The notes below the pieces were generated by a model. That model made no database searches. It was not told the origin of the DNA and was given only the letters and a program-made list of their open reading frames with translations. Shown piece after piece: positions 1,023 through 62,185 of a stretch of DNA of 64,000 bases (its first letter is position 1; every line of letters begins with the position of its first letter). Source of the stretch: Candidatus Omnitrophota bacterium. Its GTDB lineage: Bacteria > Omnitrophota > Gorgyraeia > Gygaellales > Profunditerraquicolaceae. The stretch is taken from the NCBI GenBank assembly GCA_041650835.1, contig JBAZKL010000002.1:270477-334476 (forward strand). Direction: 5' to 3'. The position numbers were made by a program, and so were the translations under genes.

Positions 1023-1138
1023 AATAATAAAGCACCCAGCGTTTTAGAGCACCCGGCGCAGATTGGAATTGCGCCGGTACGCGGCTTTCTGCCGCGGAAT
1101 TGCGTTGGTGTTTCGCTTGCTGCGAAAGGAGGTTACAG

Positions 1139-4468: not shown

Positions 4469-5342
4469 GTATTTTCTTTCCCACGAAGAACCGAGCTTGG
4501 ACCAGAGCAAACTAGACAGTATTGTCAGGCATGCCTTATGCGAAGATATCGGCAAAGGGGATATCACCACGCAACTGACCATCCCCCAGGATAAGCATAT
4601 CAAAGCCGTCTTGGTCGCAAAAGACGATTGCGTCATCTGCGGGATGGAGGCGATCGAAAGGGTATTTGTCACGGTAGATAAGAATATAACGTTCACCCCC
4701 CGGGTAAAAGAAGGCCAGGGGATAAAAAAAGGAAAAAAGATAGCCCTTATCGACGGCAAAGCCCATAGTATCCTCAGCGCCGAGCGGGTCGGACTGAACC
4801 TTTTAAGCATGCTTTCGGGGATCGCGACAAAAACGAGGGAATATGTCGAGAAAGTAAAGCCGTATAAAGTCAAGATCACCGATACCCGTAAAACAATGCC
4901 GGGCTTGAGAGAGCTGCAAAAATACGCCGTGCGCATCGGAGGCGGCTTCAACCACCGTATGGCGTTGGATGAAATGATCTTGATAAAAGACAATCATATC
5001 CAGATCATGGACGGGTATCACCAATTCCCCAAAGTCCCGAAAGGGTATAAAATCGAGATTGAAGTGCAGAATATGCAGGAATTCAACCACGCGATGCGCT
5101 TTAAGCCGGATGTCATCATGCTGGACAACATGGAAATCGCGGATATTAAAAAAGCGGTAAAGATCCGCGATAACATTCGCTTTGACAGCCATCATCCCAA
5201 GACAAAGCTCGAAACTTCAGGAGGAGTCAATATTAAGATCGTAAAGAAACTTGCGGCAACCGGAGTTGATATTATTTCTGTCGGAGACTTGACCCATTCC
5301 TTTAAGTCGGCGGATATAAGCTTAGATATCCTCCCGGGATAA
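4455..5342 (+). CDS. nadC: Nicotinate-nucleotide pyrophosphorylase (carboxylating), i.e. quinolinate phosphoribosyltransferase
   Basis: 295 aa. Typical NadC motifs (ILDTRKT-like DTRKTMPGLR, IMLDNM). Overlaps the valS end by 14 nt. Confidence 0.9.
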   Translation: MDSNKYFLSHEEPSLDQSKLDSIVRHALCEDIGKGDITTQLTIPQDKHIKAVLVAKDDCVICGMEAIERVFVTVDKNITFTPRVKEGQGIKKGKKIALIDGKAHSILSAERVGLNLLSMLSGIATKTREYVEKVKPYKVKITDTRKTMPGLRELQKYAVRIGGGFNHRMALDEMILIKDNHIQIMDGYHQFPKVPKGYKIEIEVQNMQEFNHAMRFKPDVIMLDNMEIADIKKAVKIRDNIRFDSHHPKTKLETSGGVNIKIVKKLAATGVDIISVGDLTHSFKSADISLDILPG

Positions 5343-5414
5343 GCACAACCTTAAAAACCGCGATACGGTAAGAGACAGCCATTGATGAGGCGGTATCAAT
5401 GGCTGTTTGATTTC

Positions 5415-7400
5415 ATGGAAAAATTCTCGCTTTCCTCAGCACAATTTAAACCTTGCGGCGACCAGCCAAAAGCGATAGAAGACCTCGCCCGGTCAATACG
5501 GGAAGGAAACCCCTGTCAAACACTTTTAGGAGTGACCGGCTCAGGTAAAACCTTTACGCTCGCCAATGTCATTGAAAAGGTAAATCTTCCGACGCTGGTC
5601 ATCTCGCATAATAAAACCCTCGCCGCCCAGCTTTACGCGGAGTTCAAAGAATTCTTCCCGAATAACGCGGTAGAATATTTTGTCAGCTACTACGATTATT
5701 ACCAGCCGGAAGCCTATATACCTTCAACAGACACCTATATTGAAAAGGACTCTTCTATCAATGACCGGCTCGACCGCCTGCGCCTTTCGGCTACCACAAG
5801 CCTTATGTCGCGCTCTGATGTCTTGATCATAGCTTCGGTATCCTGTATCTATAACTTAGGCAATCCGGATGATTATAAAGATATGCTCGTTTTCCTCGAA
5901 CGGGGCCAGCGCATTGCCCGTGACGAGCTCTTGCTGCATTTTATCAAAATTCAATATGAACGTAACGACTATGAATTCATGCGTGGAAAATTCAGGGTGA
6001 GGGGGGATTGTATCGAAATATACCCTTCGTATCAGGAAAAAGCGCTGCGCGTGGAGTTACGCGACGATATCATCGAAAGAATATCTGAAATTAACCCTGT
6101 TTCAGCTGAGGTACTCACGCTTCTCCAACGCGTGGCGATATACCCGGCAAAACATTTTATAGTTTCCCAGGACAGTATTGGTCAGGCGAGCGCGACGATA
6201 CTCGCTGAGCTGGACCAACAATTGAGTGTTTTACGCGGCAGGAACAAATTACTGGAAGCCCAAAGGCTTGAATCCCGTACCCGTTACGACATGGAAATGC
6301 TTAAAGAGATCGGGTACTGCCGGGGAATAGAGAATTATTCGCGCCATCTTACCGGAAGGCCGGCAGGATCGCGTCCTTATTCGCTAATGGATTATTTCAA
6401 GGGAAAATTCCTAACGATCATTGATGAATCTCACGTTACCCTGCCCCAGATACGAGGCATGTATGAAGGAGATAAAGCAAGAAAAGAAACGCTTGTGGAA
6501 TACGGCTTCCGCCTTCCGTCGTGCCTGGATAACCGGCCGCTCACCTTCAACGAGTTTAACGAACTCATACAACAAACCATCTTTGTATCTGCAACGCCCG
6601 CCGATTATGAGATCAAGCGCAGCAAGGGAATGGTCGTTGAACAGATCATCCGCCCGACCGGGCTGATCGACCCTGAAATCATCATTAAGCCGACGAATAA
6701 CCAGCTTGATGATCTGATAAAAGAAGTCAAGGCGCGCTCCAAGCGCAATGAACGCACTCTGGTAACCACGCTCACAAAGAAAATGGCGGAAGATTTAACC
6801 GCCTATTTACAGGAAAAGGGTATCAGGGTAAAATACCTTCATTCCGAAATAGAGACCATTGAACGTTCAAAGATAATACGCCAGCTGCGTAAAAAAGATT
6901 TTGATTGTTTAGTCGGTATCAACTTGCTCAGAGAGGGCCTTGATCTGCCGGAAGTTTCTCTCGTGGCTATCTTAGACGCCGATAAAGAAGGGTTCTTACG
7001 GTCGGCGACATCGCTTATTCAGGTCTCCGGAAGGGCCGCGCGCAATATCAACGGCACCGTGATCATGTACGCTGATACAGTTACCGATTCCATGAAGAAA
7101 TCTATTTTTGAAAGCTCCCGGCGCCGCGCGATCCAGGTTGAATTCAACAGAAAGAATAAAATTACTCCCCGTTCGATTGAAAAAGCGATAAAAGAGGGGA
7201 TCGAAGATATCGCGGGCGCAGAAAGTTTTGTGCGGGAGCTCACGGGTGAGGATAAAGAGGATTACGAAATACATGAATATCTTGCCGGTTTAGAATATGA
7301 AATGGAGATGGCAGCAAGGAATTTACAATTTGAACAAGCAGCGTTACTTCGCGATAAGATCAACGCGTTAAAGGAAAAAACCCTCAAAAAAAAGGAATGA
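5415..7400 (+). CDS. uvrB: Excinuclease ABC subunit B
   Basis: FKPCGDQPKAIEDL N-terminus like E. coli UvrB, Walker A GVTGSGKTFT, helicase motifs and a C-terminal UvrB/UvrC interaction coiled coil. The start could also be the ATG at 5382. Confidence 0.9.
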   Translation: MEKFSLSSAQFKPCGDQPKAIEDLARSIREGNPCQTLLGVTGSGKTFTLANVIEKVNLPTLVISHNKTLAAQLYAEFKEFFPNNAVEYFVSYYDYYQPEAYIPSTDTYIEKDSSINDRLDRLRLSATTSLMSRSDVLIIASVSCIYNLGNPDDYKDMLVFLERGQRIARDELLLHFIKIQYERNDYEFMRGKFRVRGDCIEIYPSYQEKALRVELRDDIIERISEINPVSAEVLTLLQRVAIYPAKHFIVSQDSIGQASATILAELDQQLSVLRGRNKLLEAQRLESRTRYDMEMLKEIGYCRGIENYSRHLTGRPAGSRPYSLMDYFKGKFLTIIDESHVTLPQIRGMYEGDKARKETLVEYGFRLPSCLDNRPLTFNEFNELIQQTIFVSATPADYEIKRSKGMVVEQIIRPTGLIDPEIIIKPTNNQLDDLIKEVKARSKRNERTLVTTLTKKMAEDLTAYLQEKGIRVKYLHSEIETIERSKIIRQLRKKDFDCLVGINLLREGLDLPEVSLVAILDADKEGFLRSATSLIQVSGRAARNINGTVIMYADTVTDSMKKSIFESSRRRAIQVEFNRKNKITPRSIEKAIKEGIEDIAGAESFVRELTGEDKEDYEIHEYLAGLEYEMEMAARNLQFEQAALLRDKINALKEKTLKKKE

Positions 7401-13234: not shown

Positions 13235-15402
13235 ACTATACGTTTAACCTTTATTCGATACCGACATTTTTAACCGCACTTTTTCTTTTCAGCCTGGGTT
13301 TATCCGTTTTTTTACGGGATAAAAGGTCGGATATTAATTTCAGCTTTCTTTTAGTATGTTTATCCGCCACCATTTGGCAGATGGGTTATTCTTTCGTCTA
13401 TTTAAGCGCAGATCAACATACCGCGCGTATTTGGCAGAAATTCGTATATTTCGGGATCCCATTCCTATCCCCCGCGATGTACCACTTTTCAACCGCGTAC
13501 CTTAAACTGAAGCGGCAAAGGAAATATGTCATTTTATCTTATATTTTCGGCGTTTTCTTCCTTGTCATTAACCTTTTTTCGAATTTACTGGTAAGCGATG
13601 TAACGAAATATTTCTGGGGATATTATAAGAAAGCGGGGCCTTTGTACACCATTTTTCTCATTTTCTGGCTCGTCCCGGGAATTTCGACTATTTACAACTT
13701 ATACCGGGAGCGTAAAAAATTTACCAGCCCTCTTGAGCGGGAAAGAAGAAAATACATCTTTATCGCATTTTCCATCGTATTCATCGGATTCTGGGATTTC
13801 ATACCTGCCTATGGGGTTAATATTTATCCCTTTGGTTTTATCGGCGTAGTCGCATGCCTTTCCACGATAGCATACGCCATTGTGAAATACCGTCTTTTGG
13901 ATATTACCGTTGTTATCACGCGCGCGGCAGTATTTTTGGCGGTTTATTCCATAGTATTGGGGATCCCGTTTATTCTTTCCGCGGCACTCAAAGAATGGTT
14001 CATGAGGCACCTGGGCTCAAATTGGTGGATGGGGCCGTTTTCCGCCTTGGTCATCTTAGGTACCGGCGGGCCGTTTGTTTACGTTTACCTTGAAAAAAAG
14101 GCGCAATCGATACTATTACGGGAACAACGCCGTTATCAGGAAATTCTCAAGCATATAGCAGTTGATCTATCCCGGATACGCAATTTACAAAAACTGATCG
14201 ATTATATCGCTCTTACGGTAACCGATGTTGTCCGTATTTCCCACACGATCATATATGTTCATGATGCCAAAAAAGACGTTTTTCTTTTAAAAGCCGGCAC
14301 TCACTTAAAAGATTCCCAGCTGCAGGCGATCGACCGGAAGAATATCCTGATCTCCTGGCTTGAGAAAAAAAAGGAGCCGTTAGTATACGAAGAAATCAAG
14401 CACCGCGCTCATGAAACTGCCGATCCTGACTTTAAGAAGCTGGAAGATCAAATGAGAAAACTCAACGCCGCGGTTATTGTGCCCTGTTTCCTGCAGGAAA
14501 AAATAATGGACTTACTTGTCCTGGGAGAGAAAATCTCGGGAAAGATCTATAATTCAGACGATTTAACGAATTTTTCTTTTTTAGCCAGCGAAGCGGCCCT
14601 GGCAACAGAGAACGCTCAATTATACGGCAAGATCGAGGACGAAGTTAAACAGCGCACCGAAGAATTAGTCGATGTGCAGAAACAGCTTGTTCAAGCCGAA
14701 AAACTGGCTACCGTAGGCACCCTTGCCGGAGGAGTGGCCCATGAGATCAATAACCCGTTAACGGCGATATTGACTAATGTGCAAATACTCCTGATGAGCG
14801 GTGACACTCTGGATACCGATTCAAAAGAATCATTAGAGCTTATAGAAGAAGCAACGAAGCGCTGCCGAAACATTGTTCAAAAACTAATGGCATACGCGAA
14901 GAAGCCGCTGGAGGAGTCAAAGGTCGGCAGGGTATTGATATCCGACATATTAAATAAAGTGCTCGCGTTCTTAGGCTACCAGTTTGAACAAGATAACATA
15001 AAGATAGAAATAGAGGAAAGGGAAAAGAATTGTTTTGTTCTCGGCAACCAGAATGAATTAGAACAAGTACTAACGAATATCCTCATTAATGCCAAAGACG
15101 CTATCATAGGATTTAAAAAAGGCGGGACTATCGCTATTTCAGTAGCCAGAAGCGGCAAATGGATAAAAATCCAGATCAAAGACGAAGGTATCGGTATTCC
15201 CCGTGAGGTCATTCATAAAATATTTGACCCGTTCTTTACCACCAAGGATGTCGGCAAGGGATTAGGCCTCGGTTTATCGATATGCCAATCAATTATTGAA
15301 AAACACAAAGGGTTGGTCACGGTTGAGTCAGAAGTCAATAAAGGGACCATGTTCAACATTTTACTGCCGGATGCCAAAGAGATAAACGCCATTACAATCT
15401 AA
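13231..15402 (+). CDS. Sensor histidine kinase with N-terminal 7TM sensor, GAF-like, HisKA and HATPase_c domains
   Basis: Seven hydrophobic helices in the first 270 aa. Canonical H-box VAHEINNPL. HATPase N/G boxes (…NAKDAI…, GKGLGLGLS). Confidence 0.85.
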   Translation: MNYTFNLYSIPTFLTALFLFSLGLSVFLRDKRSDINFSFLLVCLSATIWQMGYSFVYLSADQHTARIWQKFVYFGIPFLSPAMYHFSTAYLKLKRQRKYVILSYIFGVFFLVINLFSNLLVSDVTKYFWGYYKKAGPLYTIFLIFWLVPGISTIYNLYRERKKFTSPLERERRKYIFIAFSIVFIGFWDFIPAYGVNIYPFGFIGVVACLSTIAYAIVKYRLLDITVVITRAAVFLAVYSIVLGIPFILSAALKEWFMRHLGSNWWMGPFSALVILGTGGPFVYVYLEKKAQSILLREQRRYQEILKHIAVDLSRIRNLQKLIDYIALTVTDVVRISHTIIYVHDAKKDVFLLKAGTHLKDSQLQAIDRKNILISWLEKKKEPLVYEEIKHRAHETADPDFKKLEDQMRKLNAAVIVPCFLQEKIMDLLVLGEKISGKIYNSDDLTNFSFLASEAALATENAQLYGKIEDEVKQRTEELVDVQKQLVQAEKLATVGTLAGGVAHEINNPLTAILTNVQILLMSGDTLDTDSKESLELIEEATKRCRNIVQKLMAYAKKPLEESKVGRVLISDILNKVLAFLGYQFEQDNIKIEIEEREKNCFVLGNQNELEQVLTNILINAKDAIIGFKKGGTIAISVARSGKWIKIQIKDEGIGIPREVIHKIFDPFFTTKDVGKGLGLGLSICQSIIEKHKGLVTVESEVNKGTMFNILLPDAKEINAITI

Positions 15403-17429: not shown

Positions 17430-19621
17430 TGTTCACCTCAATCAATCATTTCACCCTTTCAGCGCTCTTAACTTCAATAACTACGCTCTTCCTCGGGCTT
17501 TTTGTTCTGTTCAGGGGAGGGACGAAGCGAAAATCGTATTTCATTTTTACTCTTTACACGTTAAGCATCTCTTTATGGAGTTTTTCCGTTTCGCGCTTTG
17601 ACTCGACCCTCATTGATGACGTCCTGTTTTGGGGCCGCTTCCTCCATATGGGGGCGATCTTTATCCCTATTTTCGGACTACACTTTATACTTCACCTGCT
17701 TGAGATCAACAAACAAAATAAAGCAATTATTATAAGTTCCTACGCCGTCGGCGCGGTATTTACGTACTTTAATTTATTCACCTTGAAATTGATCAAGGGG
17801 ATCACCTATCGGTCAAATTATTCTTTTCCGACCCCCAGCACTTTATATCCGGCATTCTTTTTGTTTTTTGTTTTATGCACCGGATTCTGCTTAATGAAAT
17901 TATACTTCGGCTTTAAAGATTCAAAAAGCGAGATCGCGAATCAAAGAAAGTACCTTTTTTGGGGGTCATTGATCGGATACACCGGCGGGTTGAATAATTT
18001 CCTCATTACCGCTAATATTGAGATATTCCCGCTGCACCCATTCGGCGTTTACGCCATACTTATTTATGTCGCGATTTCCACGTACGCAATTATACGTTAC
18101 CGCCTTATGGACATATCGGTAGCCGTCACGAGAACGGGAGTATTTGTGGCAGTATACACCATAGTGCTGGGGATCCCGTTCGCGGTGGCTTATTTTTTAC
18201 GCTTGTGGCTGATCGGTATATTCGATATAAACTGGTGGGCAATACCGCTGTCGATAATGGCGGTTTTGGCTACCGTCGGACCGTTTATTTATATCTATTT
18301 TGAACGCAAGGCCGAAGACAGGCTTTTAAAAGAGCAAAAGCGCTATCAAAACACCCTGCGCCAGGCATCGATCGGCATGACGCGTATCCGCAGTTTACGC
18401 AAGTTGCTTGAGCTTATCGCGCATATAATCACGAAGACCGTGCGAATATCATTCGCCGCGGTATATCTTTTTCATGAAGCCGACGAAGAATACGTATTAC
18501 AGGTCTGCAGGGTCAAGAATAAAATGCTGGCGAGCAAACTATCGGCTCACTGCGCGTTGATCGAATGGATAAAAAACAACCAGGCCCCCTTGCTTTACGA
18601 AGAAATTAAACGCAAGATGATCGACGAAAAAAACACGGATTACCGATTGGTCGAAGAAGAGATGAGGCTCCTGGGTGCTTCGGTAATCCTTCCCAGTTTG
18701 CTGGAAAATAAGCTTTTAGGGCTATTGGTCCTGGGGAACAAACTTTCCGGCCGGATGTTCACCCCCGAAGACTTAAGCGTGTTCCAGGTCCTCGCCAGCC
18801 AGGCGGCCCTCGCCATTGAAAACGCCCAATTCTATGAAGATGCCAAAGAAATGCAGGGCCAGATCGCCCAGGCTGAAAAAATGGCTACTATCGGCACCAT
18901 GGCTGACGGATTGTCACACCAGATCAATAACCGCTTTTACGCGCTCTCCTTGATAGCGGGGGACACCATCGACACCATCAAAATGACCGACGCTTCAAAT
19001 TGTTCCACTGAGATCAAAGACATGTTAGGCCAGATCAACCACGCCCTTGAACGCATCCAATTCAATGTCCTCCAGGGAGGAGAGGTGGTCAAAGGTATCT
19101 TAAAATACACCCGTAAGGGCGATGAAGGCTTTGAAGCCCTTACCATGGACCAGGTCATTGACGGTACTTTAGCCATGGTGCAGTATAAAGTCAAATTAGC
19201 TGATTTCGACCTCATCCGGGAATACCCCTGCGACCTGGCGAAGATCAAAGGCAACCTCGTGCAACTGGAAGAAGTATTCTTCAACTTTATCGATAATGCC
19301 TATGATGCTATTGTAGAACGCAGATCAACGCTTAAAGAAGAAGGGTATCGGGGAAAAATAATCATCCGCGCCCAGGCACTGGATGCTGTTATGCGCATAG
19401 AGATACAGGATAACGGAATGGGAGTCAAAGAAGAAAACGCAAAAAAGCTCTTCACCCCTTTCTTTACCACTAAAGTATCTTCGCGCAGAGGCACAGGGCT
19501 GGGGTTATACGTCATCAACAAGATCATTACCGAAACCCATAAAGGCAAGATATTCATTGAATCACAGCATACAATCGGCACGAAATTCATCGTCGAGCTG
19601 CCTATCGCCGCACAAACGTAA
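17429..19621 (+). CDS. Sensor histidine kinase with 7TM sensor, GAF-like and atypical HisKA, plus HATPase_c
   Basis: Same architecture as 13231-15402. The H-box reads MADGLSHQINNRFYAL rather than HEINNP. ATP-lid GTGLGLYVINKI. The start overlaps the upstream stop (TAATG). Confidence 0.75.
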   Translation: MFTSINHFTLSALLTSITTLFLGLFVLFRGGTKRKSYFIFTLYTLSISLWSFSVSRFDSTLIDDVLFWGRFLHMGAIFIPIFGLHFILHLLEINKQNKAIIISSYAVGAVFTYFNLFTLKLIKGITYRSNYSFPTPSTLYPAFFLFFVLCTGFCLMKLYFGFKDSKSEIANQRKYLFWGSLIGYTGGLNNFLITANIEIFPLHPFGVYAILIYVAISTYAIIRYRLMDISVAVTRTGVFVAVYTIVLGIPFAVAYFLRLWLIGIFDINWWAIPLSIMAVLATVGPFIYIYFERKAEDRLLKEQKRYQNTLRQASIGMTRIRSLRKLLELIAHIITKTVRISFAAVYLFHEADEEYVLQVCRVKNKMLASKLSAHCALIEWIKNNQAPLLYEEIKRKMIDEKNTDYRLVEEEMRLLGASVILPSLLENKLLGLLVLGNKLSGRMFTPEDLSVFQVLASQAALAIENAQFYEDAKEMQGQIAQAEKMATIGTMADGLSHQINNRFYALSLIAGDTIDTIKMTDASNCSTEIKDMLGQINHALERIQFNVLQGGEVVKGILKYTRKGDEGFEALTMDQVIDGTLAMVQYKVKLADFDLIREYPCDLAKIKGNLVQLEEVFFNFIDNAYDAIVERRSTLKEEGYRGKIIIRAQALDAVMRIEIQDNGMGVKEENAKKLFTPFFTTKVSSRRGTGLGLYVINKIITETHKGKIFIESQHTIGTKFIVELPIAAQT

Positions 19622-21273: not shown

Positions 21274-23454
21274 ATGAACAATTTCGCAATTTCAGCCTTA
21301 TTAACTTCCCTGACCACGTTATTTTTGGCATTATTCGTATTTATCAAGAACCCTAATGCCAAACTAAACAGGATTTTCACGCTTTATTCCTTGTGCATCG
21401 CTGTGTGGAGCTTCTTTGTCTCAATACACGGCTTTACCAGAAGCCAGGCGACATCAATGTTTGCGGCGCACGCCCTGCATATCGGCGCGGCATCTATTCC
21501 CGTCACTTTTGTGCATTTTGTCATGGTATTCCTTAACGATATAATCACCCCGTTCAAAAAATGGCTCCTGCGGCTCATGTATCTCATAGCCTGCGTATCA
21601 GCAACGGCAGGATTTACCCCTTTATTCGTAAAAGAGGTCACTGCCCGGCATAACGTCCTCTATCTCATGAAGCCCGGTGGGGTATGGTACCATCTTTTTG
21701 TATTTTATTTTGCTGCCTGCGTTTCTTACGGTTTATACCGCCTTTTCCTGGAATATATACGCTCAAAAGGCCTGCGGCATAACCAGATGAAATACCTCTT
21801 CTGGAGCTCGCTCTTTGGGTTTATCGGCGGGATCAATAATTTCCTTATCATCTATGATATCGATATATTCCCCTTGAACCCCTACGGCACGTACGCCGTA
21901 CCGCTTTATGTGTGCGTCGCCACCTATGCCATCATCAAATACCGTTTCATGGATATTAAAGTTGCCATAACCCGCACCGGTATTTTTGTGCTTGTTTACA
22001 CTTTTGTTTTAGGGATCCCCTTTGCGGTAGCATTATTGGCGAAATATTGGCTGATCAGCGTATTTAACCTTAATTGGTGGGCGGTCCCCTTGATCTTAAT
22101 GGCGGTTTTAGCGACTGTCGGCCCGTTCATTTATATTTACTTAGAAAGCAAAGCGGAGGGGAGGATCCTCAAAGAACAAAAAAGGTACCAGGACACGTTA
22201 AAACAGGCCTCGATCGGAATGACGCGCATTAGAAGCCTGCGCAGGCTTTTGGACCTGATCACCCACATCATTACCAAAACGGTGAGGATTTCTTTTGCGG
22301 CGATCTATCTTTTTCACGCGGATGAGCAGGAATTCACTTTACAGGTATGCAGGGACAGGGGAAGAGTGCTTACTAAAAAATTACCGGCGAGAAATCCTCT
22401 CTTTACCTGGCTCAACAAAAACAGGCAGCCGCTGGTATATGAAGAAGTAAAGAGGAAAATGCAGGACTTTAATGAACCGGTATACAAAACGCTGGAAGAG
22501 AACATGCGCCTGTTGACCGCGGCAGTCATAATCCCCAGCTTCCTGGAAAACAAGCTTTTAGGCTTTATTGTGCTCGGAGATAAACTTTCCGGCCAAATTT
22601 ACACGCTTGAAGACCTCAATGTTTTCCAGGTCCTTGCCAGCCAGGCAGCCTTAGCCATTGAAAACGCGCAATTCTATGAAGAAGCCAAAGAAATGCAGAG
22701 CCAGATCGCCCAGGCTGAGAAGATGGCTACTATCGGCACTATGGCTGACGGATTGTCGCACCAGATCAATAACCGCTTTTACGCGCTCTCCTTGATCGCG
22801 GGCGACACCATCGATACTATCAAAATGACCGATACTTCAGCCTGCTCCAAAGAAATAAAAGACATGTTTGAACAGATAAACCACGCCCTTGACCGCATCC
22901 AGACCAATGTTTTACAGGGAGGCGAAGTAGTGCGAGGCATCTTAAAATATACCCGTAAAGGAGATGAAGGCTTTGAAGCCCTGACCATGGACCAGATAAT
23001 CGACGGGACTCTCGCTATGGTCCAATACAAAATAAAACTTTCTGAAATAGACTTTGTCCGCGAATACCCGCAAGATCTGGCAAAAATAAAAGGCAACCTC
23101 GTACAGTTAGAAGAAGTATTCTTTAATTTTATCGATAATGCCTATGACGCTATTGTTGAACGCCGCACCATGCTCAAAGAACCGGGCTACAAAGGAAAGC
23201 TCGTCATCCACGCGAGGCGACAAGACAATATTATCCGCATAGAGGTGCAAGACAACGGGATGGGAGTAAAAGAAGAGAACTTGAACAAGCTTTTCGCACC
23301 CTTCTTTACGACAAAAGTATCTTCAAGGAGGGGGACAGGGCTTGGTTTATATGTTATCAACAAGATCATCACTGAGACCCATACTGGAAAGATATTCATA
23401 GAATCCACGCATAAATCGGGCACCCGCTTTATCGTAGAGCTGCCTGCCGCCTAA
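21274..23454 (+). CDS. Sensor histidine kinase, recent paralog of 17429-19621
   Basis: C-terminal 1.1 kb is roughly 90% identical in nucleotide sequence to 18.5-19.6 kb (…QAALAIENAQFYEEAKEMQSQIAQAEKMATIGTMADGLSHQINNRFYALSLIAGDTIDTIKMTD…). The 7TM sensor region has diverged. Confidence 0.75.
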   Translation: MNNFAISALLTSLTTLFLALFVFIKNPNAKLNRIFTLYSLCIAVWSFFVSIHGFTRSQATSMFAAHALHIGAASIPVTFVHFVMVFLNDIITPFKKWLLRLMYLIACVSATAGFTPLFVKEVTARHNVLYLMKPGGVWYHLFVFYFAACVSYGLYRLFLEYIRSKGLRHNQMKYLFWSSLFGFIGGINNFLIIYDIDIFPLNPYGTYAVPLYVCVATYAIIKYRFMDIKVAITRTGIFVLVYTFVLGIPFAVALLAKYWLISVFNLNWWAVPLILMAVLATVGPFIYIYLESKAEGRILKEQKRYQDTLKQASIGMTRIRSLRRLLDLITHIITKTVRISFAAIYLFHADEQEFTLQVCRDRGRVLTKKLPARNPLFTWLNKNRQPLVYEEVKRKMQDFNEPVYKTLEENMRLLTAAVIIPSFLENKLLGFIVLGDKLSGQIYTLEDLNVFQVLASQAALAIENAQFYEEAKEMQSQIAQAEKMATIGTMADGLSHQINNRFYALSLIAGDTIDTIKMTDTSACSKEIKDMFEQINHALDRIQTNVLQGGEVVRGILKYTRKGDEGFEALTMDQIIDGTLAMVQYKIKLSEIDFVREYPQDLAKIKGNLVQLEEVFFNFIDNAYDAIVERRTMLKEPGYKGKLVIHARRQDNIIRIEVQDNGMGVKEENLNKLFAPFFTTKVSSRRGTGLGLYVINKIITETHTGKIFIESTHKSGTRFIVELPAA

Positions 23455-38097: not shown

Positions 38098-38346
38098 ATG
38101 GGACACCCCGGTACAAAGGACCGCAGGGTATTACGCTTACTGCGGAATGTTTCACTTGCTGTTTTACACCCCGCGCTCATAGCACCCCAGCTTATCGGAT
38201 TGCTGGGTATGCCGCCTTCTGCCCAGAAAGGGCGCACCCAGTATACCTATGAGCTGGAGTGCTGCGGCAGAATTGCGCGGGTGTTTCACTTGCTGTTTTA
38301 CACCCCGCGCTTAAGAGGAATTGCGCGGGTGTTTCACTTGCTGTGA
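38098..38346 (+). repeat. Hairpin-forming tandem repeat array (family shared with 56590-56775)
   Basis: Unit GAATTGCGCGGGTGTTTCACTTGCTGTTTTACACCCCGCGCT at 38262-38311. A truncated copy at 38140-38177 and a partial copy at 38316-38344. Shared leader GGGTATGCCGCCTTCTGC at 38205-38222. Stems GCGCGGGTGT / ACACCCCGCGC. Confidence 0.8.
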
Positions 38347-38359
38347 AAGGAGAAAAAAG

Positions 38360-47589: not shown

Positions 47590-47830
47590 TATACACAGGT
47601 AAGGGAAGCTTGTGAAATTCAAGCACAGTCCCGCTGCTGTAAGGAAGTACGAAATTCCGCTATTTGAGCCACTGGAGGAACACTCCGGGAAGGCGCGGAA
47701 AAGTAGGATCATCTCCGAGTCAGAACACCTCACCTGCATATTGGTAATACCTCGAGGACAAGGCTTTAAAACAGGGTGCAACCCCGAGCACAGTTTCGTA
47801 GAAATAACTGGCCGGGGGTTTTTTGTTTTT
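47590..47830 (+). promoter_or_regulatory. Cobalamin riboswitch with an intrinsic terminator, upstream of btuFCD
   Basis: AAGGGAAGCTTGTGAAATTCAAGCACAGTCCCGCTGCTGTAAGG core and the B12-box GAGCCACTGG. P1 arms ACAGGT (47594) and ACCTG (47731). A GC hairpin plus T-run at 47780-47830. Confidence 0.75.
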
Positions 47831-54666: not shown

Positions 54667-56511
54667 ATGAAAACACGCAGCAAGAAAACAATTCTCACCG
54701 CGCTAACGCTTTTATGCTTTTATGGGGCCGCGCGCAGCCAGGACCTGTCATTAGAAAAGATTGTCGTAACCCCTTCACGCATCGAAGAACCATCGGGAAA
54801 TACCCCTCAAAAGGTCGATACGATAACTTCAAAAGACCTTGAGAAATCAGGTTCAAACGGCCTCACCGAGCTTCTCACGCAATTCACCGCGGTCAATATA
54901 AGTAATTACGGAGGGCCGGGGGCGACCAAAAACATCCGCATGCGCGGGGCAAGCGCGGCGCAAACTTTAGTCATGGTCGACGGCAGGCCTATCAACAGCC
55001 CGAGAGACGGAGAAGCGGACCTAAGCATGATCCCGCTTGATACGGTAGATACGATAGAAATTGTGCATGGGCCGGCATCCCATCTCTACGGATCAAGCGC
55101 CATGGGCGGGGCAATTAACATCCTCACCAAAGATCCTCCGCTCAAAAGCCCGAAAACAGAACTATATTCCAGCATCGGGACTTACCGCACTTATACCCAG
55201 CGAATGGTCAATGGGAACGCAAACTCGATTTTCGGATACCTTATTACCCATGGATATACCCATTCAGACGGCTTCCGGGAAAACGCGTTATTCAACGCGC
55301 AGGATTATAACGCGAAATTCAAATACACGCCTCAAGATGCCCACGCGATCGTATTCAATTCAGGATTTTATTCCAGCAACCTCGGCTCACCCGGCACAAT
55401 ATCCCAGCCTGATACCGATGACAAGCAAAATACTCTAAAGAATTTTCAGGACCTCACCTGGAAATATACACCCGATGAATCGGCCGGATTATCGTTGAAA
55501 TCCTATCATAGTTACGATAAATTGATCTTCAGCGAGAACACGGCAGGGTCTTTTTTTGATACCGCAAATAAAAGAGATATCCATACGACCAACGTAACGG
55601 GCTTTGACCTGGGAGGCAATAAAAAATTCTTCCAGGAGCGCTTGCACCTTATATGCGGCTTTAACTATATCGGCAACACCAATGACAGCACTAATTCCCA
55701 AAAGCATAACTACCACGTCGTAGCCGGATATTTAGAGGACAAATTCATTGCTTTAGAGGACCTGGAATTCAACTTCGGCGCAAGATTCGACGATTATTCA
55801 AATTTCGGGACTCAATGCAATCCCAATTTTTCTTTTCTTTACCGCTTCAGTCCATCCTTAAAATTCCACGGATTGATCAGCCGGTCTTTTCGCGCGCCTA
55901 CTTTTAACGATCTATACTGGCCTGACGAAGGATGGGCAAAGGGAAATCCCGCATTAAAACCGGAAAAAGGAATAACAGGAGAGATCGGCACAACCATATC
56001 GTGCGGCGGCTTTCTCACTACGCGCCTGGGGTATTTCAGGAACGCCTTTCATGACCTCATCAACTGGGCGGAGGCAGGGGGAGTTTGGATGCCGCAAAAT
56101 GTAGGATCGGCGCTCACCGACGGCATAGAATTCGAGAATAAGGTATCGTTTACAAAAAATATCCAGTTTAATACCGGATATACCTTCTTACGCGCGAAAG
56201 ATGCCAAAACAAATAAATATCTTGTCTATCAACCAAAACATAAAGCTGATTGTTCGCTTTCGTACGCTGATCTACGCGGCTTTTCCATAAAAATAAACGC
56301 TCAATTTACCGACAAGCGCTACCATGATGCCGCCAACTCGGTTAAAGTTAAAAGATTTTACGTATTCGGGATCCAAGCAGCAAAGAAATTCAAGCAGAAT
56401 TACACTTATTTCTTTTCTATTGAAAACCTCAGCAACCAAAAATATGAGGTGATCCGGGAATTCCCTATACCGGGATTCACGGTCACCAACGGCATGAAAA
56501 TAGAGTTTTAA
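54667..56511 (+). CDS. btuB: TonB-dependent outer-membrane receptor (cobalamin receptor candidate)
   Basis: Signal peptide, TonB box IVVTPSR, plug domain, 22-strand barrel and a C-terminal …KIEF aromatic terminus. Preceded by a B12 riboswitch. Confidence 0.8.
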   Translation: MKTRSKKTILTALTLLCFYGAARSQDLSLEKIVVTPSRIEEPSGNTPQKVDTITSKDLEKSGSNGLTELLTQFTAVNISNYGGPGATKNIRMRGASAAQTLVMVDGRPINSPRDGEADLSMIPLDTVDTIEIVHGPASHLYGSSAMGGAINILTKDPPLKSPKTELYSSIGTYRTYTQRMVNGNANSIFGYLITHGYTHSDGFRENALFNAQDYNAKFKYTPQDAHAIVFNSGFYSSNLGSPGTISQPDTDDKQNTLKNFQDLTWKYTPDESAGLSLKSYHSYDKLIFSENTAGSFFDTANKRDIHTTNVTGFDLGGNKKFFQERLHLICGFNYIGNTNDSTNSQKHNYHVVAGYLEDKFIALEDLEFNFGARFDDYSNFGTQCNPNFSFLYRFSPSLKFHGLISRSFRAPTFNDLYWPDEGWAKGNPALKPEKGITGEIGTTISCGGFLTTRLGYFRNAFHDLINWAEAGGVWMPQNVGSALTDGIEFENKVSFTKNIQFNTGYTFLRAKDAKTNKYLVYQPKHKADCSLSYADLRGFSIKINAQFTDKRYHDAANSVKVKRFYVFGIQAAKKFKQNYTYFFSIENLSNQKYEVIREFPIPGFTVTNGMKIEF

Positions 56512-56589
56512 TTCTACGGTTATCGGTTCGAGGTAATTTTTGTCCGATAACCGAACACCGATAACCCCCGGCGCAGATCGCACCCCTCC

Positions 56590-56775
56590 TTATTGGAATG
56601 GCGGGGTATGCCGCCTTCTGCGGCAGAATTGCGCGGGGTGTGCTGCTTTCTGCTTTACACCACCGCGCTGATCGGAATTGCGCGGGGTGTGCTGCTTTCT
56701 GCTTTACACCACCGCGCTGATCGGAATTGCGCGGGGTGTGCTGCTTTCTGCAGCACCGATAACCGAAACAGCATA
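56590..56775 (+). repeat. Hairpin-forming tandem repeat array with a 49-bp unit (family shared with 38098-38346)
   Basis: GAATTGCGCGGGGTGTGCTGCTTTCTGCTTTACACCACCGCGCTGATCG at 56626-56674 and 56675-56723, plus a partial third copy. Leader GGGTATGCCGCCTTCTGCGGCAGAATTGCGCGG at 56604-56636. Flanked by CCGATAACCGAA at 56553-64 and 56756-67. Confidence 0.85.
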
Positions 56776-56813
56776 TTTCTTGCAAAATAGGCGCGATATG
56801 TTAACCTAATATC

Positions 56814-57503
56814 ATGTCACCGAATAAAATATTCCCTCTGTCACTTACTGTTTCTATTCTCGCTCATAGCTTGGTTTTCTTCCAATATTCCGGGCTGCTG
56901 CATAAACCGGAAAAAAAGAAGAGGCAGGAGCTTCATATCAGCTATGTAAAACGCCTGCCTGCCCAGGAAATACCCGTCAAGAACATTTCACTTAAAAACC
57001 AGCCGCTGGCAGCGTTGCCTCCTAAAGTAACCGCCGATGAAACAATAACGGCTTCAGCTAACACAAAGAATAACGTGCAAAATATTTTTTCAAAGAATAT
57101 AGAGAACATGCGGCGCCCATCCCCTTTCATTAAACCGGCATTGATCAAGCCGGACACGATACCGATCAAGAAAAAGATCTCCTTGCCGCCGGTAGAGCCC
57201 GACAAGATCAAAAATCCTTCGTACATGGGATATTACCAATTCGTCAGAGAAAAGATAAGGCGAGCCGCGTATTACAATTACGTGCGCACCGTAACCGGAG
57301 AAGTATATCTTTCATTTGTCATTGCCAATGACGGGAAGCTGCTCGACCTAAAGTTCCTCGAAGACAAATCTTCGGGGAATGGCTATTTAAAGCAGACCGC
57401 GATCAAAAGCATCAAAGATTCTTCCCCGTTCCCGGCTTTTCCCAAAGAGCTCGATTATCCGCAACTATCATTTACCGTCATAATTTCCTTTGAAGTTGAA
57501 TAA
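56814..57503 (+). CDS. tonB: Energy transducer TonB-family protein
   Basis: N-terminal TM with the S…H signature (SILAHSLVF), a Pro/Lys-rich spacer and a C-terminal TonB_C domain (…GEVYLSFVIANDGKL…). Confidence 0.7.
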   Translation: MSPNKIFPLSLTVSILAHSLVFFQYSGLLHKPEKKKRQELHISYVKRLPAQEIPVKNISLKNQPLAALPPKVTADETITASANTKNNVQNIFSKNIENMRRPSPFIKPALIKPDTIPIKKKISLPPVEPDKIKNPSYMGYYQFVREKIRRAAYYNYVRTVTGEVYLSFVIANDGKLLDLKFLEDKSSGNGYLKQTAIKSIKDSSPFPAFPKELDYPQLSFTVIISFEVE

Positions 57504-61567: not shown

Positions 61568-62060
61568 AGGGCAGGCAGAAGGTGATCACCCCAGATATCC
61601 TGCATATCGGGGAGGAAAGTCCGGGCTCCAGAGGATAACGCGCTCTTTAAGCAAGAGCACTGTTGCGTTTTTTAGAAATAAAAAACGGCGCAGTCGGGAA
61701 AGTGCCACAGAAAATAAACTTCCTTACTGCTTTACCGCGGTGAGGTAAAGGTGAAAAGGCAGTGTAAGAGACTACCGTAAGCCATAGCGATATGGTTTGC
61801 ACGGAAAACCCCGCGCGGAGCAAGGTAAAATAGTTCTATCCATTATTCCGGATTTTCCGGAGTAGATAAGAATGATCCGTTTGAAATCCCAACGCTTACC
61901 GCGGGGGGATGGGTAGAAGGGTTTACTGCTTGAGTCCCCCTGGCAACAGAGGGATCGAGAGAAATGATCGCCATAACCACAGAAATAACGCTCAATTCGC
62001 ATGAGTTTACCTTACTCGATTTATGTGGTTATACAAAACTCGGCTTATCTCTGCCTGTTC
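61568..62060 (+). ncRNA. rnpB: RNase P RNA, bacterial type A, unusually long
   Basis: P4 5' strand GGGGAGGAAAGTCCGGGCTCCA at 61617-38. P4 3' strand ACAAAACTCGGCTTATC at 62033-49. GGTAAAGGTGAAAAGGCAGTGTAAGAG and CGGAGCAAGGTAAAATAG motifs. P1 pairs 61572-79 with 62050-57. Confidence 0.7.
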
Positions 62061-62185
62061 TTTTTTATATCAGGTAACAGTTTATACCGGATCTTCGGGC
62101 CAGAGCTACGCTTTGAGCCGGAATTGAAAAGGATTATAGACTTTAAACAAATAAAACGTTAATTGAAATCAATAAGGAGGAAATC

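Follow-up and report, generated by a model that had tools for sequence, protein, structure and literature searches.

A two-hairpin repeat family set against Shine–Dalgarno sequences in Candidatus Omnitrophota, and its tandem array between btuB-like and tonB-like genes

The REP/BIME repeats of Enterobacteria and Pseudomonas, which are associated with RAYT, are short, GC-rich, imperfect palindromes of 30–40 nt with a bulge that recur many times in a genome, chiefly between co-transcribed genes, form mosaic arrays and vary between strains; they are transcribed and affect mRNA stability. Rickettsia palindromic elements (RPE), of 100–150 bp, are dispersed palindromes that are also found in frame within coding genes. 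ERIC/IRU and the Neisseria Correia repeats are small and non-autonomous, and are co-transcribed in operons, where their hairpins alter mRNA processing and stability in an orientation-dependent manner. A further parallel is provided by 5′ stabilizers and insulators of the ribosome-binding site (the ompA 5′ hairpin, the Bacillus 5′ stabilizers and RiboJ-type parts), in which a stable hairpin stands directly 5′ of an unpaired Shine–Dalgarno (SD) sequence. The Omnitrophota are uncultured, very small bacteria, the gene regulation of which is, to our knowledge, essentially unknown. Nothing on such repeats in Omnitrophota was found in the accessible parts of the literature, including a 2025 survey of REPs.

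In this study, a 64-kb window (the entire stretch of Omnitrophota DNA that was analyzed, 64 000 nt) was found by repeat searches and a covariance model (CM) to hold three loci of one repeat family, all on the + strand, at 1050–1132, 38098–38359 and 56567–56754. The original prediction had described the last two, upstream of gspD and tonB, as members of the same family; the CM, the repeat search and a motif search agree that they are, and the locus at 1050–1132 is a third. It is considered reasonably probable that, taken as a whole, the array between btuB and tonB is a locally amplified cluster of an Omnitrophota-specific, short, dispersed two-hairpin repeat that is mobile-like, sense-oriented and SD-adjacent. 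The family is absent from Rfam and from the accessible literature, small structured dispersed repeats being a kind that is already known; the distinguishing feature is a fixed sense placement against the SD sequence. The family provides a handle on operon expression in Omnitrophota, on the spread of small structured repeats, and on assembly breaks and strain variation in metagenome-assembled genomes (MAGs).

The family unit comprises ∼47–49 nt and consists of a first hairpin (H1) followed by a second (H2). H1 is GC-rich and reads ACACC-C-CGCGC, a loop of 11–12 nt ending in GGAATT, and then GCGCGGGTGT, with outer pairs ACACC/GGTGT, a covarying inner stem and one bulged base; in the 5′ arm, ACACCCCGCGC, the bulged base is C in the family and A in the btuB–tonB array. 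The H1 variants that were found by the CM only are compensatory (ATACC/GGTAT, CCTGCGC/GCGCAGG, CAACGC/GCGTTG, CGACGC/GCGTCG and CTGGCGC/GCGCCAG), and their loops still end in GGAATT or GGTATT; the perfect H1 arms of the large set are partly a matter of ascertainment, because the search pattern required them. H2 lay outside the metagenome search pattern, and its properties are therefore unbiased. Its stem of 4–7 bp varies in sequence from copy to copy and is always complementary: on direct folding, from which the H2 statistics were taken since the CM-derived alignment handles the variable-length H2 poorly, it forms at least 4 bp in 82 of the 88 units (mean z of −6.1; 54 distinct sequences), and the four H2 pairs given by RNAalifold were changed on both sides in 10, 35, 17 and 34 sequences. 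The sense RNA was the more stable in 41 of the 54 H2 types, as against eight for the antisense RNA (p ∼ 1e-6), and neither the paired fraction nor the covariation score was equalled in any of 500 shuffles. The unit accordingly has a covariation-supported structure on the transcribed strand, and, as far as these patterns can be read, the units appear to be transcribed and their structure to be selected in RNA.

Several known classes of element were tried and set aside. No Rfam 15 model matched the repeats in the window at the gathering threshold, the best E value in a permissive search of 56450–56850 being 1.6. An intrinsic terminator or attenuator would need a T-run, which follows neither H1 nor H2, and three terminator-like calls from a scan are unconvincing, being 5-bp stems inside H1 followed by TGCTTTCTGC. 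A double-stranded operator for a dimeric regulator leaves unexplained both the compensatory changes in H1 and H2 and the asymmetry between sense and antisense. The σ54 promoter pattern GG-N10-GC fits the subfamily in the window (GGTGTTTCACTTGC), but most family members carry other H2 sequences. By eye, R′/R′′ core sites of an integron attC and the three-way catalytic core of a minimal hammerhead are absent, the `spacers' that CRISPR repeats would have are identical, and the neighbours are housekeeping genes.

The resemblance to REP/BIME begins with H1, an extragenic, multi-copy, imperfect palindrome of 32–34 nt with a bulge. However, a GTAG or CGTC tag at the end of the palindrome is absent from either strand of the 88-unit alignment, in which the ends are ACACC … GGTGT and conservation does not extend to the 8 nt 5′ of H1. 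Furthermore, the arrays are built from units in direct orientation, whereas those of REP/BIME alternate; the unit has a second, sequence-free hairpin; it is fixed at 0–1 nt 5′ of an SD sequence in the sense orientation, whereas REPs are mostly found 3′ of genes and may face either way; and one H1 sequence is common to many species. The occurrence of copies in frame within coding genes, here of RsmD-like and MacB-like proteins, recalls RPE, although these are of unrelated sequence and are not SD-adjacent, and intragenic copies are the exception in the Omnitrophota family. ERIC and Correia repeats are 120–160 bp in length and have terminal inverted repeats, a TA duplication and both orientations, in contrast to a unit of ∼48 nt with no terminal inverted repeats and no consistent duplication. 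Unlike in a MITE, each inverted repeat lies within a single hairpin, and the two termini of the unit bear no relation to each other; a possible target-site duplication, ACCGATAACC, flanks the btuB–tonB array, and none is present at the insertions in L134, the RsmD-like gene or the MacB-like gene. With the 5′ stabilizers and insulators the family shares the position of its stable hairpin; these are, however, single-gene features or synthetic parts, whereas the family is repeated, mobile-like and shared across the phylum.

A pattern scan of the GTDB species genomes found nine loci in five MAGs, eight loci under the title Candidatus Omnitrophota or Omnitrophica and one under Planctomycetales, and a search of JGI metagenomes, with a pattern of the two H1 arms only, gave at least 119 stretches; viral contigs scanned for the family pattern gave no matches. 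The 64-kb window has three loci, and there are several units per 8–20-kb locus elsewhere. An SD core lies 13–15 nt after H1, which is 0–1 nt after H2, and a start codon lies 23–28 nt after H1 in 87 of the 121 assessable units (∼72%), and these start codons open real ORFs. Most of the other units are inner members of arrays, of which the last unit abuts the SD and ATG. The two other loci in the window obey this rule. In the locus before gspD the last unit is canonical, with H1 at 38300–38332, H2 (TTCAC-TTGCT-GTGAA) at 38333–38347 and the SD sequence AGGAG at 38348–38352, and is followed by the ATG (38360) of a secretin (gspD-like) gene confirmed by Pfam; in the predicted fold of this locus the SD and ATG stay unpaired. 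The locus at 1050–1132 consists of a variant H1 (CACCCGGCGC … GCGCCGGT, 1050–1078), an H2 (CGCGGC-TTTCT-GCCGCG, 1080–1096), a lone 3′ arm (1097–1111), a second H2 (TTTCGC-TTGCT-GCGAAA, 1111–1127) and the SD sequence GGAGG (1128–1132), after which comes the GTG (1139) of a DUF1257 gene (Pfam).

Upstream, 72 units have a co-directional neighbour and 12 a divergent one; the stop codon of the neighbour and H1 are separated by a median of 23.5 nt, and frequently by 0–8 nt. Between flanking ORFs of at least 100 amino acids, 72 units lie in sense between co-directional genes (+,+ relative to the unit), compared with three in antisense (−,−). A σ70-like promoter, with the end of its −10 box 8–29 nt before H1, precedes ∼10 of 123 units and places H1 within ∼0–20 nt of the predicted transcript start. 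The family is an intercistronic or 5′-leader module set against the ribosome-binding site. The proteins encoded downstream (78, with 82 Pfam families) include three ACPs, two Hsp70 (DnaK) proteins, two SSBs, EF-Tu, several PPIases, IlvC, ThyX, YebC and a secretin; as these genes are mutually unrelated, the family is not a regulon-specific signal. Neither a coherent gene set nor conservation at orthologous positions was found, the element being missing at the orthologous tonB, gspD and cobS sites in relatives. In the window, all ORFs of at least 120 amino acids, apart from those nested within longer ones, are on the + strand, an extreme co-orientation over 64 kb that bears on how the orientation bias of the repeat is interpreted; the bias could come in part from replication-strand bias in genomes with strongly co-oriented genes.

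The array that is the subject of the original prediction is the single strong array detected by Tandem Repeats Finder (TRF) in the 64 kb (Table 1), and its TRF consensus is exactly that quoted in the prediction, so that the perfect tandem duplication is borne out. The 16-mer motif GAATTGCGCGGGGTGT, with up to three mismatches, occurs six times in the window against 0.56 expected, a number reached by none of 100 shuffles, and five of the six matches fall in this array and in the element upstream of gspD. In the fold of the array unit, GCGCGGGGTGT and ACACCACCGCGC form 11 bp plus one bulged A, in agreement with the predicted stems of 11–12 bp, and the 302-nt gap between the two genes has a minimum free energy (MFE) of −131 kcal/mol (z of −6.96 versus shuffles). 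The register conserved in the family is ACACCACCGCGC, the loop TGATCGGAATT and then GCGCGGGGTGT; the 49-nt unit as first described is the family unit in another register, and within a tandem array the 3′ arm of an H1 is also able to pair with the 5′ arm of the copy that follows. Although the repeat is real, it does not extend over 56590–56775 as had been proposed: repeat-derived DNA covers ∼56567–56754 (188 nt), and 5′ of the perfect repeat lies a diverged unit nested within another unit.

The cluster begins with this composite nested unit, continues with two more H1 hairpins with truncated H2 and closes with a final complete H2 (56740–56754). The outer H1 of the composite is formed by the 5′ arm CCCCCGGCGC (56565–56574) and the 3′ arm GCGCGGGGTGT (56631–56641), and its loop (AGATC … GAATT) contains a diverged H1 (56581–56607, with a weak CM match at 56582–56607) and an H2 (GCCGC-CTTCT-GCGGC, 56610–56624). 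The first full H1 is followed by the truncated H2 GCTGCTTTCTGC (56691–56702). The closing H2 is the only complete terminal H2 of the array and has no SD sequence after it. The btuB–tonB cluster is thus atypical of the family, lacking this SD and lying upstream of the promoter-like block of tonB itself. The tandem copy number is that of a single assembly (k = 141). A second, independent assembly from this strain (L002, Logan SRR8542065, 1–78) ends inside the last repeat unit, which indicates that the family breaks short-read assemblies of these genomes.

Table 1. Positions of the features described, all within the 64-kb window
Feature	Positions	Strand	Evidence and remarks
Locus upstream of the DUF1257 gene	1050–1132	+	Repeat searches; CM match 1051–1078, 15.4 bits
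Locus before gspD, nested and tandem array	38098–38359	+	CM match 62.5 bits, E 1.6e-16
Hairpin CGGTTATCGG … CCGATAACCG	56517–56553	+	Read from the sequence; outside the repeat family; no T-run after it
ACCGATAACC, 10-nt direct repeat, left copy	56557–56566	+	Brackets the array; single copy in the array-free strain L131
Composite nested unit	56565–56641	+	MFE fold; outer stem encloses both inner hairpins
Perfect tandem repeat, period 49 nt, 2.6 copies	56626–56751	+	TRF score 252, 100% matches; independent repeat-family search agrees
First full H1: ACACCACCGCGC, loop TGATCGGAATT, GCGCGGGGTGT, bulged A	56657–56690	+	CM match 29.2 bits, E 1e-06
Second full H1 (56706–56739) and H2 GCTGC-TTTCT-GCAGC (56740–56754)	56706–56754	+	CM match 56698–56781, 30 bits
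ACCGATAACC, right copy of the flanking direct repeat	56755–56764	+	Comparison with L131
Promoter-like block: TTGCAA 56780–56785, TGTTAACCT 56799–56807	56780–56813	+	Conservation only

The genes on either side are those that had been named. The upstream gene encodes a TonB-dependent receptor (Plug and β-barrel) and closes the B12 operon, and the downstream gene encodes a TonB_2 protein (Pfam); the tonB-like ORF starts at the predicted ATG, 56814, with an in-frame stop codon 12 nt upstream, the ORF calls being mechanical. A cobalamin riboswitch (47602–47730, 83 bits) heads the + strand operon, the order of which is a B12-binding protein, a FecCD permease, an ATPase, CobC-, CobU-, CobT- and CobS-like proteins, Diphthami_syn_2 and the TonB-dependent receptor. 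The position of the receptor at the end of a cobalamin-riboswitch operon supports the btuB-like label. Directly 3′ of its stop codon (56509–56511) stands a separate hairpin (Table 1), of which the array-free strain L131 has a longer version.

Comparison with relatives shows turnover. In L131, the TonB of which is 99% identical, the btuB–tonB gap measures 111 nt and holds no array, with flanks near-identical to those of the window; ACCGATAACC, which brackets the array, occurs once at this empty site. A strain with 86% identical TonB (L132, JGI contig Ga0376277_0000172) has a different composite at a different point of the gap, and relatives at 52–53% identity have gaps of 52–55 nt with no element. 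Arrays before gspD are present at 85–100% identity with varying composition (the relatives at 94 and 85% and the window have only part of their units in common), and relatives at 66 and 59% have gaps of 17–23 nt with no array. In L134 a unit exactly fills the space from the cobS stop codon to AAGGAGG; the same gap in the window, L131 and L132 consists of the stop codon, 3–6 nt and the SD sequence, with no unit. No target-site duplication is seen when L134 is compared with the window, nor at the RsmD and MacB insertions, and the flanking 10-nt repeat ACCGATAACC may stem from local duplication or deletion instead.

Units are also inserted into one another and into genes. At 38168–38332, at 56565–56641, in L010 and in L132, a further H1 plus H2 is enclosed by an H1 stem, inserted into its loop directly before GAATT, and a reverse-oriented unit lies inside an H2 in the locus at 38098–38359 and in L137. 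A sense unit is in frame in a gene for an RsmD-like 16S rRNA methyltransferase (L009, 2413–3015, − strand), where it encodes the peptide TPRVDGNCAGVPLSAA after the DPPY motif, inside a ∼21-residue segment (query residues 124–147) without a counterpart in the solved homologue 2esr; an antisense unit is in frame in the linker between the nucleotide-binding and transmembrane domains (NBD–TM) of a MacB-like ABC transporter (L008, 135–1574, + strand; peptide LFAESETPAQFRLARGV). Perfect tandem arrays of 47, 49 and 119 nt occur in unrelated contigs, and the array in the window is one instance of this general tandem habit. With copies at multiple sites, strain variation, stacking, nesting and in-gene copies, the units behave like small non-autonomous mobile DNA.

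In the reading of these data that is favoured here, the RNA of the unit would form a stable hairpin module by which the adjacent ribosome-binding site is kept free and the downstream cistron is buffered or delimited against 5′-end-dependent or intercistronic decay. The conserved, bulged H1 would be the probable recognition site of a sequence-specific factor, whether a protein that binds RNA or the enzyme responsible for copying the element. Distant orthologues do without the element, and any benefit must therefore be small or conditional. The 3′ flank is purine-rich even in copies that have no SD, and the H1 loop, AAGGAATT, is SD-like; together these suggest a preference for the 5′ edge of an SD-like sequence, which should be taken as a lead and not as a result. 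A more far-reaching version can be offered only tentatively and is doubtful as it stands: H1–H2 would be a phylum-wide portable expression cassette, placed by itself or by an enzyme at the 5′ edge of the SD, with H1 read by an Omnitrophota-specific protein. Reading of H1 in the mRNA would then set the translation or decay of the downstream cistron, and nesting would be explained by targeting of the SD-like AAGGAATT loop in the family's own copies. If true, the family would be mobile DNA that targets the ribosome-binding site itself.

The same turnover can be accounted for by purely selfish DNA (a REP/RAYT-like, IS200/IS605-derived or other MITE) that is copied as single-stranded DNA by a host-encoded transposase and has no role as RNA, the SD adjacency and orientation arising from a preference for purine-rich targets of the AAGGAG type and from strand-specific insertion. 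Presence/absence polymorphism, nesting, tandem stacking and in-frame intragenic copies all fit such an origin, as does the lack of a target-site duplication at L134 and RsmD, which HUH Y1 enzymes predict. The copies without an SD precede A-rich purine runs (AAGACC, AGAAAG, AAATTA, AAAAAA and AAGTTT) and nested units precede AGAATT, and the SD-like loop AAGGAATT would account for self-targeting. However, no Y1 transposase was found by tblastn in 942 kb of genome fragments around 130 loci (queries IS608 TnpA and Escherichia coli RAYT; best E of 0.6), a weak negative, and the GTAG or CGTC tag is absent. The sense bias of 72 to three exceeds what gene-strand bias alone would give, and the distance from H2 to the SD is fixed at 0–1 nt, whereas that from the stop codon to H1 is broad. 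Furthermore, the H2 stem is free in sequence yet complementary in 54 variants, for which selection on each copy is a better fit than copying from a master. An exclusively selfish origin is thus held to be rather unlikely, without being negligible.

Reading of the module by a CsrA/Rsm-type protein is improbable. A dimer would bridge the GGA of the H1 loop and that of the SD ∼30 nt downstream and thereby control translation, and arrays with no gene, such as the present one, would serve as decoys. GGA is present in 63 of the 88 H1 loops, usually as GGAATT at the 3′ side, the SD (AAGGAGG) lies at a fixed distance and the multi-hairpin arrays are similar to sponges of the CsrB/RsmZ type; nevertheless, 16 of the loops have GGT and nine have neither, and at 11–12 nt they contrast with the short loops of CsrA targets. 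What the family conserves is the bulged H1 stem sequence, a feature that CsrA does not recognize, and the elements come and go between strains. A search of the genome fragments around the loci (942 kb) for homologues of CsrA, Hfq and ProQ was negative, although this is a weak test on parts of genomes.

Two proposals concern the btuB–tonB gap itself. An element of the btuB operon 3′ end, selected here as a barrier to exonucleases in the manner of REP/BIME or as a partial terminator, would suit an array that lies 56 nt after the btuB stop codon and upstream of the next promoter-like block and consists of GC-rich, very stable hairpins, and other copies with no SD (L003, L004 and L005) are also in 3′ or intergenic positions. 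Against this, the array is dispensable in a near-identical strain and lacks a U-tract, another hairpin is already present in the gap at 56517–56553 and the usual position of the family is 5′ of genes, so that selection at this locus is given a low probability. The cis-regulatory element of tonB that was originally envisaged, which could be for example an operator array or an attenuator working through alternative hairpin registers, is highly improbable: the array does lie 59 nt upstream of the tonB ATG and its tandem units are able to pair in two registers, but it is missing in the strain with 99% identical TonB and in relatives at 52–53%, a conserved promoter-like block lies downstream of it, the same family stands before dozens of unrelated genes and no hairpin is followed by a T-run.

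The promoter-like block, TTGCAA-N15-(TG)TTAACCTAA-N4–7-ATG, is found directly 5′ of the tonB start in all five gaps compared (the window, L131, L132, L133 and L134), and its TTGCAA … TGTTAACCTAA form stands without an SD in each of them. In the window the sequence before the ATG reads TTGCAA-N15-TTAACC-N7; TGTTAACCT stops 6 nt short of the start codon, and the array lies upstream, with 25 nt between its end and the block. The block was not called by a simple σ70 scan, and no SD sequence precedes the ATG at 56814. The lack of an SD, together with a conserved block so close to the ATG, suggests a leaderless or near-leaderless mRNA; tonB probably has its own promoter and a transcript with no leader or a very short one. 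The array was supposed to occupy the tonB promoter or leader region. As it lies upstream of this block and the orthologous site is empty in a near-identical strain, the case for such a role is removed and the promoter/leader reading is not supported. The comparison of orthologous gaps had been named beforehand as the one that could tell against a regulatory reading, and its outcome, an array missing in relatives, weakens that reading and, as foreseen, leaves the repeat call unaffected. The array at this gap is most likely a recent, dispensable insertion that then underwent perfect tandem duplication, and it is probably inert or acts on the 3′ end of the btuB mRNA, adding at most 3′-terminal hairpins to that transcript. 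It should not be annotated as a regulatory element of tonB or of B12 metabolism.

A good test case for array growth is provided by a 9.5-kb metagenome contig (L062, Ga0210019_1006395), in which more than ten family units form three clusters (680–1650 and 5260–5560) with multi-level nesting and two perfect tandem arrays. A second short palindrome, AAGACC(C/G)GGTCTT, lies beside family units in the JBAZTA MAG (L003, 6430–6560; L005, 20–75; L132, 1340–1480), and a long inverted repeat, GGGAAATGAGGGAATTTT …, follows the unit of L132; these two may be further repeat families. Elsewhere in the window, a class A RNase P RNA (61570–62063, 215.6 bits) extends over 494 nt against a model of 367 positions and thus has sizeable insertions. 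Three paralogous genes of ∼2.2 kb (723–730 amino acids; 13873–15402, 18083–19621 and 21925–23454) are spaced at 3.8–4.2 kb and share 68–72% DNA identity in blocks; by their motifs they look like sensor histidine kinases, as does the HisKA_7TM gene in L139.
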